A stretch of 44,324 bases of DNA, taken from Promethearchaeota archaeon (GTDB lineage: Archaea; Asgardarchaeota; Lokiarchaeia; Sigyniarchaeales; SOKP01). Below the pieces are notes generated by a model. It was not told where the DNA came from. It ran no database searches and saw nothing but the letters and a program-made list of their open reading frames with translations. The stretch is from NCBI GenBank assembly GCA_016839745.1, contig JAEOTS010000143.1, forward strand, positions 1 to 44,324. The letters are read 5' to 3'. A program made the translations under genes and the position numbers. Positions 1,041 through 34,601 of the stretch are shown here, one piece after another (within the stretch, counting starts at the first letter, position 1; each line of letters begins with the position of its first letter).

Positions 1041-1160
1041 TCCATTTTCATCTTTCAGCAGTAATCACTCATCTTCATTTAAAAGAGGGAATTATACTAT
1101 TATAAATATGGAAAATTAATCATATAAATCTGATGTGAGTTGTTAAAAAGTAAAAAAATA

Positions 1161-2438
1161 CTAATTAATAGGAGAAAGTAACTTTTCAAGAGATTTAATG
1201 TCATGTAATTTTGCGAGCTCATTTAATTTTTTCACGATACTAATGGCAGCCAGTGTCATTACAACGCCAAAAGCCCCCATAAAGTCAAACAATTCCAATT
1301 CTGTCTTTAGTGATGCGGCTTCATCAATTCTTTCCCCCATTGGCTCTATTTCTCGTTCCATTTGACCATCTTCACCCTGTTGACCAGTGCAATCACAATC
1401 AATATAATATATATCGATAAGATAATTCATTGCGGCAGCTGCATGATATATAGCAAGATAAAGACTGTGACCAACTGTATCAAAATAACGCTTGGCAGTT
1501 GTATCTAGATTAATTTGAGCACGAGTTACCATAGTCCAAGTGTTAATTTTCTCATAATCAATGTCTACTGTAGATCCTGGTAAAAGAGGCCAATATTCAG
1601 TCTTCGGATAAAATAAATAATGCATATCAGCTGCATCCAAATAATAGCTTGTGCCCCATCTTGTGATTCTTGCAGCTTCTCTAACCGCTAAACTAGGTAA
1701 TTCTTTATGATCCAGAGGAAAACCAACTGATAAATCTACTCCAATATCAGAAAAAAAATCTGTAGTAGTTCTAAGAGGATAAATTGTGTTGGTTAACATC
1801 TGAACACAAGAAGCATATCGTATATCATGTAAAGCACCATCTTCTTGTATATTTTTCACATGGGGATAGTAAGAGGCATCTGCGATGAGATGGCACATGA
1901 CTCCTAAGAGATATGCCGCTCTTTGGCAATCACGCCATGAAAAACTTTCACCAACCAAACCCGCAACATTGTCTACATAAGATAATAACGCTCCAGTTGG
2001 CTCTGAATCGAAAGTTTCAAATCTCAACCTATGATCTGAGTAAACACCACCTATAACATTAGTAACCCAATTTTGACACCTAGTCAATAAATAAACCTGA
2101 TATGACAGTCTAGAATCAGGGACTTCTGTACCCAGAAGGTACCACCATTTTAAATCATTGGTATTGATATACAAGGCTTCAATAAATTGATTATAACATT
2201 TCTCATACAAGATTTGAAGTGCCGACTCAGCAATCCAATCATGTGTTCCATAATGTTTAAGCCCATTATTTAATAAATAATCCTCTTTATAATTCCACCA
2301 AGACTGCGCGTAGGAATAACCTCTTCCCTTTCTTTGATTCCTCCATGCAGCCACTTCAGGGTAATAGTTTTCAGCACAAGACATTATAGCTAAAAATAAA
2401 AGAAAAGAAACCATGTAGAAATATTTGATTTTTTTCAT
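1161..2438 (-). CDS. Secreted, C-terminally anchored Zn-dependent phospholipase C / nuclease P1-fold protein
   Basis: Signal peptide ending VAA|W, with Trp as the likely mature N-terminal Zn ligand as in PLC/P1. Motifs GTHDWIA, LLGTEVPD, SDH, HLIAD...PH and a later H. Hydrophobic C-terminal helix FMGAFGVVMTLAAISIV. Confidence 0.75.
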   Translation of the reverse strand: MKKIKYFYMVSFLLFLAIMSCAENYYPEVAAWRNQRKGRGYSYAQSWWNYKEDYLLNNGLKHYGTHDWIAESALQILYEKCYNQFIEALYINTNDLKWWYLLGTEVPDSRLSYQVYLLTRCQNWVTNVIGGVYSDHRLRFETFDSEPTGALLSYVDNVAGLVGESFSWRDCQRAAYLLGVMCHLIADASYYPHVKNIQEDGALHDIRYASCVQMLTNTIYPLRTTTDFFSDIGVDLSVGFPLDHKELPSLAVREAARITRWGTSYYLDAADMHYLFYPKTEYWPLLPGSTVDIDYEKINTWTMVTRAQINLDTTAKRYFDTVGHSLYLAIYHAAAAMNYLIDIYYIDCDCTGQQGEDGQMEREIEPMGERIDEAASLKTELELFDFMGAFGVVMTLAAISIVKKLNELAKLHDIKSLEKLLSPIN

Positions 2439-11700: not shown

Positions 11701-14700
11701 ATGATGCCATCGCCATCAGTATCAGCGCAATTAGGATTTAAATAACGGCAGAAGTCAAGCTCAAAATATTCTAAATAGCATGATGCTGTGGAAATATCAT
11801 ATTTATTGTCTCCAATGGTATACTGAGGATCCCATGAATATCCAACAGCATCAACATATATATCAACTCCAGTGTGATAACTATAAGAACTAAATTTTGA
11901 GCGATTAACGCTATTTAGAGCTGTGTTAAATGAATATGGACCTTTCTTTGTACCATCGACCCAACAATAAAATTTATCAGCTGCGAGTCCCAAATACTGT
12001 CCGTTTCCACATTCAAAATCTAGGCGGACATGATACCAAGTTTCACTATCTACTAAGCAGATATATCCAAATGTGTGATCAGGTTTTTTGTACTCTAATT
12101 TTCCTCCATAAATTCTTAAAAAGACTCCGTTTTGACCCGCATCATCTACAAGGGTAATATAGTGACTTTTAAAATCATCAAAAGTCCCTCTCACCCACAT
12201 TTCCACTGTTCCGCTCTCTCGGGTAGAATCAAATTCATTTTCTATTATGAAAATATTAGATTGAGAATCATCGTGTAAATGAAGAACCTTTTCATGATTA
12301 GCCGAGTTTTGAATTACCTTAGCGAAGCATCCATCACCAGAACTATCTGTCCACCCAGAAGGAACTGCATCGTTGTAGTCATTATCAAAACTGTAGGTGG
12401 CAAGATATGTCCCCTCTTCGATATATTTGTACGCAACTCCAGATGCTAGAAATTTCCCTTCGTTATATCCCTCATCCCAGCTAAAACTTAACGCATCATA
12501 GTAGATTGCATAATCCGCACTATCGGTACCTGTTGTAAAGAACCTGAAATAGTTTGGATCGATATTATTAAATTTATTATAATCTAAAGTCCCAGAACAT
12601 ACCCCATCGATTGTAATTTGCCATTTTTTATTGCCAAGCCCCTTCCATGCAGTAGAATCTCGACACCAATCAATCTGGATGGCATACCACTGATCTAATT
12701 CCGGATCTGGGATGTTAGGTGCAACAATCCAATCATTCCCATCCCTACATTTCCATTTCCCATTATCAAGAGTAAAGTAAAACGCGCCGTAAGGATAAAT
12801 TTTTCGATTTGCGCTAAAAATGTAAGTTGGGCCATAGGATGATAAATGCCCTGTTATCATAAAATAGAATAATACCGTACCATGTCCTTTATATTGCCCA
12901 TCGTCATATTGCATGTATGCATTTTGCGATCGATCCGTATCATTTAAAATCAAGACATCAGTATGACCGTTTGCCCAAGCCAGTTCATGAAGATGACAAC
13001 CTGCCCCGGTACAATTTATCCAATCATCAGTTTCTGGGAATTCGAAATTTGGACCGAAATATGTACCATAATAATCACCTGGGGTTGTTGCATTCAAAGG
13101 ATACCCGATTGCAATCTCATAATCGCCATGGTAGTTATAATCGAGTTCTTCATCGTTCATAATATCTGTGATGTCAATAACTTGGGAAAAATATCTCGTT
13201 GAGTTCGTAGTGAAGTTTGCAAGGACAATGCCATCATCTTTCTTCGTGATGATAATCGAAATATCATACACACTTTCATTAGCTACCCCATAAGAGCTAG
13301 TAGAATTAAATTCGCCAAATTCCCCAAAGGAAATTCCAAAACTAATTTGAGCGGCGCTTGCTTGCTCAAAATTATGGGGAAAATGAAGAGTAACAGGGTT
13401 CGTCAAGTTTACCTTTTTATCGAGATCATCAAAGCCTTCATCTTTTAAATTATAAAAATAGTGTTTAATTTCTGCAGAGTCGCTTACAAAATCATGATCG
13501 GAATCTGCGTCAAGCGGATTCGTATAAAAACCAATTCCCCATCCAAAAACCTCTTCACCATCTTTTAAACCATCAGAATCCGTGTCTGTATTATTATAAT
13601 TTGTTCCAATCTGTATTTCGTCATAGTCGCTGAGTAAATCTTCATCCCCATCCCATTTTGACACAAAGGGATCTATATCATCAGAAAGATCATCATTATC
13701 AGTATCCGATTGTCTGGGATGACACCCTTTATAATATTCATCATAATCTGGCAAACCATCACTATCAGTATCATTCGAGAGAGCGTCACTGTCAATGTGA
13801 AAGGTAGAAGAGTTTTCAAAGTATACCACTGTTATATTCCAACCGTAAATCTCTGTCCCATCAGATAGAAAGTCATTATCAGAATCCCAATCTAATGCAT
13901 CTGTATTCATTGACAGCTCTCCTTTAGTTACATTGACATTATATCCATCCCACAGCCCATCACCATCAGTATCAGGGTCTAAATAGCTGGTGTTAGATAC
14001 TGTTTGCTCATAATTATCTGAGAGACCATCACCATCAGCATCACTGGTTGAATTGCCCGATATTTTAAACATTAATTCTGCTTCATCTGTTATTCCATCT
14101 AAAGAGGAATCTACAGTTGAGTGGATTTCGAACACAGCCATCTTTTCATTTCCTTCGGGGTCAATCACATGAACCTCTCCAAGATATACAGTAGTTCTCT
14201 TACATTTAAAAAACACTTCAGAACAAGAACCTGGATCATAATCATACCAATTAAGAATTCTAGTTCCATCCCTTATTTTCCAGTGATATATTAACTCATC
14301 ATTGTCGAATACTGAATCAGTTCCGTATGCTCGCAATATTATTATTCCATTATCATTACTAGAGCCAATCTCTCCAGCAACTCCATAGTACATATAACTT
14401 GATACGAGCACTTCTGGAGAGAGGGGATGAATCACAATTTTAATTTGTTTGGTAGAAATATGACCAGAAGGATCTTCAACAACTAAAGTGTAAATATATT
14501 CACCATCATTTAAAACCATCGTTGGACACTTTTCTGTAGAAAGTACTACATTTGCTTCATCATACCAGAAATACTTTAAGAATGGCTCATCAGATTCACT
14601 ATCATAAATTTCCATATCAAGGGTTAATGCTTGCCCCTCTAGTCCTTGAAAAGCAAATGGTCCAAGTATTTCGGGAGCTTTTGAAAGGATAGTAATATTT

Positions 14701-32358: not shown

Positions 32359-32520
32359 TTATAAATATTTAATTAACAAATTGAGTAAATAAAAAAAATT
32401 ATTTTTTGCAGCAGCACGTTGGACTCGTGATTTAAATCCTTGATTCTTTCCACTTCGGTCTGTCTGGGACTGAATCCTACTTGCTGCTTTGGAGCTCATT
32501 TTATTTTTTCCTTTTCCCAC
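32359..32520 (-). CDS. Small SMP-like (seed-maturation-protein-like) basic protein missed by the ORF track
   Basis: Manual translation (GTG 32520, in-frame ATG 32499): MGKGKNKMSSKAASRIQSQTDRSGKNQGFKSRVQRAAAKNNFFYLLNLLIKYL*. It resembles the M-x-x-x-AASRIQS...GFxxRAQxAAAKN small-protein pattern. Confidence 0.7.
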   Translation of the reverse strand: MGKGKNKMSSKAASRIQSQTDRSGKNQGFKSRVQRAAAKNNFFYLLNLLIKYL

Positions 32521-32627
32521 TTATTCCACTTTTTTTCTTTACTTAAAAAGGAAGACTGCTGGAAATTAATCCTAATTGCGATAGATCAGATGTACTTTCT
32601 AAGAATTCAATAATTTCTTAATTAAAG

Positions 32628-33725
32628 TTATAGAGTTTTATTTATGTTATCCGAAAAGTTTAGATTTTTAAGGGAATCTATAAGTTCTACAATTTTAATT
32701 CTAATTTGAAAATTTTCTGAAATGTCTATTTGGTTTAATTCTTCATTGAATACTTTTTTAAGTAAATTAGTAAAAGTTTCTTTTAGAATAACACGATATT
32801 GGTAATTATAATGCTTGAGGTTAATTGATACTTCTTTACCAGCGATAATTAGATAATCAATTTTTCTATTTTCTAGGTAAAAATAATTATTAAATCTAGC
32901 AATGATATTTTGAACAGTATCTTTTTTATAAAGATATTTCTTATCAAATTTGCCTAATTCCTCAAATAAAAGAATATAATTCGAATTTGGATCATAAGCG
33001 ATTAATTCAGGGTGAGATATGATGTTTAAGTCTTTAAAATTTCTATGATTTAAAAGATTTTCAATAGGAATGACTTCAAACCCTAAAATATAGAAAATTC
33101 TTGCAAATTTCTTACATTTAATAGATTCTTCAGATTTACTCCAGTCAGATTCTAAAAATTTGCTTATTTCATTGATTTCATCAATTCTTAACAGAGAAAT
33201 TCTATTAATTGCTTTTTGATATAAATGATTGTTGGTAAGAACTCTTAATTTTGAAAAAATTTCTTTATCAATTAATTTTATAATGAAATCGGTAACATCA
33301 CTTTCTAAGAAGTTTAAGGGAAGATCTATACTATTCCTAAAACCTTGCAGAGAGAAATTTACCAATAATTCTTGATTATCCTTGTAATATTTTTGAAAAG
33401 CTGGAATATTTGTCAAGCTACCGCCTTTAACCATGTAATCAGTAAGATTTTTCAAACCATAGGAAAACCCTTCTAAAAGGCTAAGCCATAAAGAATCTTT
33501 TTGTTTTACAATTTTTACTTGATCTCCATATTCAGATGAAAAAAGATTTATTTTATTTCTGGTATGCTTCCCTTGTTTATCGTAAATTTCTTGAAGTTCA
33601 ATAGAAAGGTAAGGATTATCACAAAATGCGGGAAAAAATTCTCGATATTCTCGATTTTCTTTACTATCTAAGATCTCCCTAAATTTTTGTACAAATAACA
33701 ATAACCATTCCTTTTTGTCTTCCAT
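32628..33725 (-). CDS. Hypothetical protein with a possible degenerate PD-(D/E)xK nuclease-like C-terminal domain
   Basis: IFYILGFEV...HPELIAYD...ILLFEELG...YLIIAG resembles the restriction-endonuclease fold, but the catalytic residues are non-canonical. Confidence 0.45.
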   Translation of the reverse strand: MEDKKEWLLLFVQKFREILDSKENREYREFFPAFCDNPYLSIELQEIYDKQGKHTRNKINLFSSEYGDQVKIVKQKDSLWLSLLEGFSYGLKNLTDYMVKGGSLTNIPAFQKYYKDNQELLVNFSLQGFRNSIDLPLNFLESDVTDFIIKLIDKEIFSKLRVLTNNHLYQKAINRISLLRIDEINEISKFLESDWSKSEESIKCKKFARIFYILGFEVIPIENLLNHRNFKDLNIISHPELIAYDPNSNYILLFEELGKFDKKYLYKKDTVQNIIARFNNYFYLENRKIDYLIIAGKEVSINLKHYNYQYRVILKETFTNLLKKVFNEELNQIDISENFQIRIKIVELIDSLKNLNFSDNINKTL

Positions 33726-33891
33726 TTTTTCTCTGAAATTGTGTTTTCTATTATTAATTTTTCCAATAATTAAATCTTCAAGATCTAGCTTGCACGTCTT
33801 TTTAAATTCTATTTATTTGTTGTTTTCATATACTCTAATGGTAAAGATTGTTACTTATATATTTTATGTAATTTCCTTATTTAAAAGGGAA

Positions 33892-34080
33892 AACTCCTGC
33901 CACCAAGACCTAATAATAAGGTCGCAAACAAAATAGGGGGAGGAGGGCGAAATCAGAGTGTGTTCTCACACACTACCAAAAGACAAAAATCCAGGGTAGC
34001 AGCAGGAGTCACAGTTTGTAATTTAATATGGTACATATTATACTTGTGGATGCTTGAGTTTGGTGCTCCTATTTTGTCAA
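33892..34080 (-). ncRNA. Putative structured non-coding RNA of unknown family
   Basis: 14-bp closing helix with G-U wobbles (34010-33997 with 33905-33892); 7-bp hairpin with a GAGA tetraloop; further hairpins; 10-bp long-range pairing; GC-rich relative to the flanks; promoter-like signal upstream and U-rich tract downstream. Confidence 0.55.
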
Positions 34081-34099
34081 GATACAAAAAGAAACCCGC

Positions 34100-34130
34100 C
34101 TATATATAGTTTTTCCCTTGAAGTTTCAAG
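34100..34130 (-). promoter_or_regulatory. BRE/TATA-like promoter with an adjacent inverted repeat
   Basis: Minus strand reads AAGGGAAAAAC-TATATATA; perfect 6-2-6 palindrome CTTGAA-GT-TTCAAG at 34117-34130 just upstream. Confidence 0.45.
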
Positions 34131-34229
34131 TTAAAAGTTCAAATTTTTGCTTTAAATAAGGAAGTGAATGGTGCAATTTTTATTTAAAAATATATAAATT
34201 AGATAGATTTAAGAAAATGAAACAATATT

Positions 34230-34532
34230 ATGAACATGAACATGAGTAGGACAGGAAAAACCATCATAAGAGGATATATTACTGCCATTCACAATGGAGA
34301 GAAACGGATTTCTCGAGGTTATACCTATGGATATATGGTGCTTACGGTACATAATAAGGATGGGCTCTATTCCATGCTAGTAAATTCCTCCAAAATTAAC
34401 TCTTATGGGTTTTTACCGCGTGTAGGACAGTATATTCTTGCCGAAGGAATTAGGTCACCTTCGCGGGACGGGTTTCATGACTACTCTTTAAGCCATCTCT
34501 CCACGCTGGAGCATATTGAACCTTCAAAGTGA
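34230..34532 (+). CDS. Stand-alone OB-fold nucleic-acid-binding protein
   Basis: Strand pattern TIIRGYITAI...MVLTVHNKDG...LPRVGQYILAEG is typical of tRNA_anti/RPA-type OB folds. Confidence 0.6.
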   Translation: MNMNMSRTGKTIIRGYITAIHNGEKRISRGYTYGYMVLTVHNKDGLYSMLVNSSKINSYGFLPRVGQYILAEGIRSPSRDGFHDYSLSHLSTLEHIEPSK

Positions 34533-34601
34533 AATAATTTAGCTACTATAAAGAAAAAGAAGTTGTAAATTCTTTGAAAGAGTAGCCTTGTCATTACTTA
34601 A

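Follow-up and report, generated by a model that had tools for sequence, protein, structure and literature searches.

Among known organisms, Asgard archaea are the nearest relatives of eukaryotes, yet their non-coding RNAs are, to our knowledge, almost entirely uncharted. The Sm-like proteins of archaea form rings that bind U-rich single strands and 3′ U-tails. Among the Sm-class snRNAs (U1, U2, U4, U5 and U7), U7 carries the site AAUUUGUCUAG. Small RNAs of the RsaE type provide another term of comparison, for RNAs with C-rich anti-Shine-Dalgarno motifs. The Sm-site consensus is quoted as AAUUUUUGG (PMC5587771), and the archaeal examples of the C-rich motifs are sRNA162 and sRNA41 of Methanosarcina mazei (PMC3510493).

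The window analysed here is the whole 44 324-nt stretch of contig JAEOTS010000143.1 from a Promethearchaeota archaeon. Judged by sequence comparison, its positions 34010–33886 on the minus strand are one gene copy of a stand-alone structured small RNA of ∼125 nt, a member of an uncatalogued family. The RNA consists of a 13–14-bp closing helix, two inner hairpins and two conserved single-stranded tracts, one U-rich and the other C-rich (Table 1). No match to Rfam 15 was found at gathering score over the whole window, and E-value mode over 33500–34600 returned only two chance-level matches, both outside the core. The core matches no Rfam family, and an earlier note on this DNA had not recognised it as tRNA, 5S, SRP, RNase P or a hammerhead; a full-text literature search found no description of the RNA.

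Like the Sm-class snRNAs, this RNA displays a single-stranded A-U5-G followed by UC between two helices; it is compact (∼120 nt), probably ends in U-tracts and is encoded by multicopy, dispersed genes with putative promoters of their own. Unlike them, it belongs to archaea without a spliceosome, the bases flanking the U-tract do not fit RAU4-6GR exactly, and no snRNA shows homology to it in sequence (no match in Rfam), the Sm likeness being a resemblance only. With the M. mazei sRNAs and the RsaE type it shares a stand-alone gene, an exposed C-rich tract complementary to GGAGG and siblings that differ beside this tract. It departs from them in that no target enrichment was found in the host genome, in an invariant element that is the U-rich box, and in a C-tract that is structured in the sister family. 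Y RNAs and bacterial Y-like RNAs, partners of Ro60 (Rsr), resemble it in their long end-closing stem, large pyrimidine-rich internal loop, 3′ U-tail and several paralogues. TROVE/Ro60 (PF05731) was found in 0/24 genus genomes and not in the host genome, with positive controls in Deinococcus and Bacteroides. With no TROVE gene in the genomes searched and no match to a Rfam Y RNA model, kinship with Y RNAs was ruled out.

Resemblance to 5S rRNA lies in the length (∼120 nt), in the closing helix formed by the ends and in the near-universal presence in the host family, but the RNA occurs in up to 18 copies per genome and has no similarity to RF00001 or to sister-family 5S rRNA. A divergent 5S rRNA was a tempting identification because RF00001 passes in 0/6 family and 4/4 sister-family genomes; it was rejected on account of separate full-length, sub-threshold 5S candidates and the unrelated sequences. 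The host-family 5S rRNAs themselves reach only 20–33 bits against RF00001, for a cut-off of 38 (e.g. G103:C28:194172-194283, G139:C2:71963-72074 and G000:C17:469-557), so that standard annotation would miss them. In a wider family draw the cut-off was passed in 1/41 genomes, a single match that may be contamination.

Other known classes were also set aside. ARAGORN found no tRNA in the window, and a tRNA-like T-arm or a tmRNA-like RNA is further contradicted by the loop of hairpin c, which is variable and not T-loop-like (UUCRANY). A C/D-box or H/ACA guide was discarded, as RUGAUGA is missing and the CUGA of the window copy reads CUCA or CUUA in most others. A guide against rRNA was likewise discarded, 16S and 23S duplex energies being mostly within the range of shuffled motifs; for the U-rich box with 16S rRNA, 1/30 shuffles was as good, in a duplex that contains long loops. 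Defence-linked RNAs (type III antitoxin repeats, retron msr/msd and IscB/TnpB omega RNA) were rejected for want of a constant partner-gene adjacency and of a PADLOC match.

Table 1. Elements of the RNA locus, in window coordinates (G022, closest relative of the host; G102, genome of another genus)
Element	Position	Strand	Observations
Palindrome ('operator')	34130-34117	-	present in window; not conserved
TATA-like box CUAUAUAUAGG of window copy	34109-34099	-	∼25 nt upstream of leader box; kept in G022 and G102 (alignment)
Leader box GACAAAAUAGG	34079-34068	-	partner 33937-33927 (helix e plus one pair); invariant in G022 and G102
Putative 5′ leader	34067-34013	-	5′ part (to ∼34048) kept in window-type copies; remainder variable; includes hairpin d
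Hairpin d	34040-34024	-	not preserved in G022 or G102
Helix a, 5′ strand	34010-33997	-	paired with 33905-33892 at 14/14 positions, four G-U; 13/13 modelled pairs with double-sided changes
U-rich box CUGGAUUUUUGUCUUUUGGU, 20 nt	33994-33975	-	single-stranded; Sm-site-like AUUUUUG; unchanged in ∼85/91 copies, 12 genera
Hairpin b, AGUGUGU-GAGA-ACACACU	33974-33957	-	7 bp; GAGA loop in window copy; 7/7 pairs compensatory
C-rich tract GCCCUCCUCCCCCUAU	33948-33933	-	single-stranded; anti-Shine-Dalgarno-like; kept in most family copies
Internal segment CCUAUUUUGUU	33937-33927	-	partner of leader box; pairing and co-variation
Hairpin c, GACCU-UAUUAUU-AGGUC	33923-33907	-	5 bp, 7-nt loop; 5/5 pairs vary on both sides across genera
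Helix a, 3′ strand	33905-33892	-	pairing and double-sided changes
3′ tail and U-tracts UUUCCCUUUU	33891-33883	-	likely terminator

The stems and pairings a–e described in the earlier note, as well as its TATA-like element and palindrome, are all present on the minus strand where it had placed them, and comparison with homologues separates the elements that are maintained from those that are not. A structure alignment of 91 copies was made with a model, a procedure that favours the structure because the copies are fitted to it. In this alignment, 95.4% of the cells of helices a, b and c are paired, versus 74.1% in column shuffles and 34–48% when the partners are slid, and the observed structure measures were reached by 0/500 shuffles. 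Double-sided changes are found at 25/25 pairs of the three helices, with 373 compensatory cells, so that the homologues with compensatory base changes for which the note had called do exist. Helix a, for instance, is spelled GACUCCUGC, GAUCCCAGCC, GGCUCUCAG or GAAGUCUGAC in different genera, each time with the matching 3′ strand. Many of the pairs are U-G, which the opposite strand would show as C-A mismatches; therefore the minus strand is the sense strand, in line with the orientation proposed from the window copy.

Some details of the first description did not survive the comparison. The stem of hairpin b is kept by compensatory changes, whereas the identity of its GNRA tetraloop is not conserved among copies; the loop of hairpin c is not conserved either. 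Of the promoter-like region the TATA-like box is kept and the palindrome proposed as its operator is not, and hairpin d is a feature of the window sequence that the other two window-type copies lack (Table 1). Folding better than shuffled sequence holds for the 127-nt core alone (–39.1 kcal/mol, z = –4.17, 0/200 shuffles as good). For the 221-nt stretch, the z-score of –2.05 is uninformative because the plus strand folds equally well (z = –2.09). Among the single-stranded elements, conservation of the C-rich tract is less strict than that of the U-rich box, and most copies continue after helix a with a (U/A)C(C)CCUUUU tail. One copy, L083 (G060:C343, RNA at ∼1121–1270, minus strand), which represents the ancestral locus in one genus, carries a 29-nt hairpin-forming insertion within the U-rich box, CCCUGGAU-[29 nt]-AUUUUGUCUUUUGG; on visual inspection, no canonical bulge-helix-bulge could be fitted to it.

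The search for homologues in Asgard genomes gave a family present in nearly all genomes of the host family. A 251-nt BLAST query run against the genus delimited the conserved part, which covers only helix a through the 3′ tail (window ∼34011–33883), and found copies in 24/24 genomes (1–9 each); the second copy of the host genome lies at G000:C5:76795-76920. A covariance model built from 27 copies (R1) matched 127/135 genomes of the host taxonomic family, in 12/13 genera and with 1–18 copies per genome. It matched all of the 36 high-quality genomes of the family (≥90% complete, ≤5% contaminated) and 40/41 genomes of the genus. Across the order, R1 matches were present in 123/131 genomes of the host family (f1) and in 1/14 of another family (f2), and none was found in two further families. 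A broader covariance model (R2), used on a phylum sample at E ≤ 1e-3, matched 29/29 f1 genomes and 0/121 genomes from 24 other Asgard families. At lax thresholds, weak homologues with the same architecture appear in the sister family (G032:C1:1198524-1198656, G025:C63:17833-17962 and G038:C1:1882148-1882279). Their box reads AUU(U)AUUUUGUCUUUUUGGAU, and the equivalent of the C-rich tract sits inside a hairpin; no synteny with the ancestral locus described below was found for them. The shared architecture indicates that the RNA family is older than f1 and quickly diverging.

In all, ∼400 genes of the family were detected, and copy number increases with genome size. The RNA family is abundant and strongly structured, near-universal in one large Asgard family and endowed with a 20-nt invariant single-stranded box. 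In public records, the exact box is found in nearly all cases in Promethearchaeota/Promethearchaeia MAGs, and the RNA could be used as a lineage marker. Same-genus or same-family MAGs that carry it have been titled Odin-, Hermod-, Hod- or Thorarchaeota (records include L171, L180 (isolate H3B.4), L128, L144 and L151), and a few RNA-bearing contigs are placed in bacterial bins (Clostridia, Saccharibacteria and Patescibacteria); these records are probably mislabelled or misbinned. IMG/VR yielded four motif matches, one of which is a divergent family member (L126, IMGVR_UViG_3300029288_000001, positions 38–141 of a 224,826-nt contig classed there as viral). The covariance model does not recognise the other three box matches as members, and they resemble chance matches. 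With one member among four matches, a virus-borne RNA was rejected.

Upstream of the core, a further pairing connects the 5′ side of the locus with the central loop. In the window copy, 34077–34068 pairs with 33937–33928 at 10/10 positions, Watson–Crick throughout. In the common copies the upstream box is AAAUAAAAUAGGG, complementary to the internal segment CCCUAUUUUAUUU; boxes of this type are conserved only in the genus and a few neighbours. Within the genus, paralogues have different internal segments and upstream boxes: UAUUUUAUUU occurs with AAAUAAAAUA, UAUUUUGUUU (window copy) with (A)CAAAAUA, UAUAAUCUUUCU with AGAAAGAUU...AUGGGG, AUUAUCUUUU with GAAAGAUAAU, CCCUAUAUUA with UAAUAUAGGG, UCUCCCUAUUUAGUU with AACUAAA-GGGAGA, and CCCCUAGUU with AACUA...GGGG. 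The co-variation of the two segments was evaluated on one representative per paralogue group (n = 12 groups), by comparing duplex energies of cognate and permuted upstream/internal pairs. The cognate pairs sum to –160 kcal/mol versus –127 ± 8.5 for permuted ones, and 3/20,000 permutations were as low (p ∼1.5e-4). A group's own upstream segment ranked among the top three in eight of the 12 groups, and the other four gave no signal. Own-versus-other duplex scores in distant genera were also without signal. In a reversed-sequence control, the helices average 10.2 bp versus 11.2 bp for the real ones, A/U-rich partners inflating the statistics of helix length; since the control is almost as long, the evidence lies in pairing specificity and not in helix length. 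We thus regard the pseudoknot-type pairing of the 5′ box with the central loop, predicted in the earlier note from a single copy, as real within the genus and maintained there by co-variation.

Initially, AAAUAAAAUAGGG was taken for a TATA box and pairing e for a matter of promoter DNA only, a reading revised after the co-variation tests. In its developed form, the upstream box would be promoter DNA (TATA region), and its match to the central loop would mean that the mature RNA feeds back on the promoter of its gene, or that an inverted repeat exists at the DNA level. The box does stand 24–37 nt before helix a in most ancestral-locus copies, at about TATA distance, and conservation falls sharply just 5′ of helix a. 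Against this, its distance from helix a spans 22–76 nt among paralogues, G-U pairs are tolerated in the leader helix, and a second TATA-like box lies ∼25–28 nt upstream of the leader box in window-type and ancestral-type copies. The variable distance and the G-U pairs argue that the leader box is RNA rather than a fixed promoter element, and we hold the promoter-DNA reading to be decidedly improbable.

The window-type copies (window, G022 and G102) keep the TATA-like box, the leader box and ∼30 nt beyond. From the position of the TATA-like box in window-type and ancestral-type copies, we place the putative start of the primary transcript near 34079. We infer that the TATA-like box at 34109–34099 acts as the promoter and that the transcript ends in the U-tracts at ∼33883. 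The transcript would then include the leader box, which could form a pseudoknot-type or self-masking helix with 33937–33927. Paralogue L027, however, has a better TATA downstream of its leader box and ahead of the core. A window-type unit of 314 nt comprising promoter, leader and core is 82% identical in another genus (L052, positions 1334–1635 of G102:C60:2637-5766), and the usual copies of that genus are more distant; this unit could be a lateral transfer or an old conserved paralogue.

The two single-stranded tracts suggest different functions. If the C-rich tract were the active element, the RNA would be a trans-acting antisense regulator. Its constant CCCUCCUCCCCC would pair with GGAGG-type ribosome-binding sites, the paralogue-variable UAUUUUGUUU would confer specificity, and the leader box would be a decoy that masks the seed until the leader is removed. 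Such a regulator would represent a sibling sRNA family with a built-in, co-varying mask. CCCUCCUCCCCC is conserved in the family and unpaired in the consensus fold; GGAGG/GAGGU is enriched upstream of ORFs, as are GGAGGUGAU-type motifs in front of long ORFs; and in G008, a relative of the same genus, the 16S rRNA terminates with GGAUCACCUCCU. Furthermore, the segment beside the C-tract differs among paralogues and is tracked by the leader box. Targets, however, did not emerge: a pattern search for mRNA sites in the host genome (89% complete) gave no complementary site at up to four mismatches. Shorter sites were without excess over reversed-pattern controls (90 versus 96, 91 versus 65 and 59 versus 139), and the best G-rich match lies inside a coding region. 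Moreover, in sister-family homologues the equivalent tract lies within a hairpin, and the most conserved element, the U-rich box, is left without explanation. An antisense role is therefore unlikely.

The helices vary freely with compensation while the 20-nt single strand is invariant, a pattern that would fit a scaffold presenting a binding site. We lean, on balance, towards a stand-alone RNA of ∼125 nt, transcribed with its leader, that would act in trans as a scaffold and display the invariant box AUUUUUGUCUUUUGG to some conserved partner. The ring of an Sm-like archaeal protein appears to be the most plausible such partner, a proposal that we make tentatively and that has a smaller chance of being correct than the scaffold itself. 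Three LSM-domain genes are present in the host genome, two of them at G000:C80:51648-51839 and C40:1073-1261. All Asgard genomes searched contain LSM genes, which thus do not explain the narrow distribution of the RNA. Within GGAUUUUUGUC, the A-U5-G between helix a and hairpin b is invariant, and the next base is U, not a purine. It is tempting to go further and to see in AUUUUUGUCUUUUGG a genuine Sm site. RNA and Sm-like ring would then make up a small RNP, stable and multicopy, and Asgard archaea would have a prokaryotic counterpart to the Sm-core architecture of eukaryotic snRNPs, including the U7-like UUUGUCU variant, with the co-varying leader helix as a checkpoint of assembly or processing. 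This extension, drawn by analogy, is distinctly unlikely, a little more so than the antisense role; if the box did prove to be a binding site of the Sm type, one could test directly how Sm-core RNPs arose.

The partner was also sought among neighbouring genes. In most genus genomes, one copy of the RNA, considered ancestral, lies between a divergent gene for a membrane protein of 125–140 aa and a 569-aa radical-SAM gene (PF04055 and PF23545), and this locus recurs in nine genera. The products of the genes flanking it are a 4-TM membrane protein, a 155-aa protein of unknown type and a zinc-ribbon protein; RNA binding is not evident for any of them, and a conserved protein neighbour as partner was rejected. 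In the host, the ancestral locus is broken (G000:C72 ∼12897–14252): the radical-SAM (tetraether-synthase-like) neighbour is cut at the contig end and the upstream genes are unassembled, so that the assembly probably lacks a third RNA copy, the ancestral one. Other copies adjoin genes for an XPD-type helicase, an mTERF protein, an amidase, a SpoU methylase, a lipid-synthase, LRR proteins and many unknowns. The window copy is an extra paralogue of the scattered type, and such paralogues lie among ordinary genes.

It is in this light that the defence-island setting of the window copy has to be read. The earlier note had proposed an independent RNA or a cis-regulatory leader, possibly the RNA component of a defence module, and its check on flanking genes asked whether these co-occur with homologues. 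In the corresponding rival reading, the RNA would serve a defence or toxin module together with a 365-aa gene and a divergent 100-aa gene. The RNA indeed lies 158 nt upstream of the 365-aa gene on the same strand, in a region where restriction, ATPase and STAND genes abound. Yet in the closest relative (G022) the 365-aa gene is absent and the 3′ end of the RNA is joined directly to window ∼32561. The gene occurs in 4/42 genus genomes versus 40/41 for the RNA, and, outside the window, the 1.5 kb on either side of it are free of RNA copies in the genus genomes that carry it. The 100-aa gene was not found beside the window-type copies of G022 and G102, one of which is on a contig that stops ∼240 nt upstream of the RNA, and neither protein, of 365 or of 100 aa, has a match in Pfam or PADLOC. 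Neighbours differ from copy to copy, and the ancestral copy occupies an unrelated locus. The defence-module reading is scarcely credible; comparison of loci indicates that no neighbouring gene is a conserved partner of the RNA and that the RNA is not part of the surrounding defence island. The independent, structured and uncatalogued RNA on the minus strand is upheld by its compensated homologues, and the structural description from which this work started is largely right, its link to the defence island wrong. For annotation, a false 'defence RNA' lead is removed, and the covariance models can label hundreds of loci.

The 365-aa gene lies on a block of ∼1.3 kb (window 32576–33876) that is missing from G022. 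Since G022 joins the RNA 3′ end to ∼32561, this block is an insertion. It is bounded by the intact 3′ end of the RNA and by a degenerate ∼40-nt duplicate of this end (32575–32535, ∼70% identical), which suggests insertion at the 3′ end of the RNA gene, as occurs at tRNA genes. Several genomes likewise contain an extra 251-aa gene between the ancestral copy and its downstream neighbour. Such observations, with the greater copy number in larger genomes, could mean that the extra copies are mainly genomic landmarks, their 3′ ends being insertion hot spots and the RNA itself having a housekeeping function unrelated to the island. This is improbable, as no integrase or transposase adjoins any of the copies examined, the 3′-end duplicate is only ∼70% identical, and paralogues that preserve their structure through compensatory changes behave as functional genes and not as att remnants. 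On the same grounds, i.e. no integrase near any copy examined and paralogues that keep their structure, an attachment site of an integrative element was ruled out. Just downstream of the insertion, a 46-aa basic ORF (window 32362–32499, minus strand) with a ribosome-binding-like site GGGAAAAGGA and no Pfam match is kept next to the RNA in G022, with ∼81% DNA identity.
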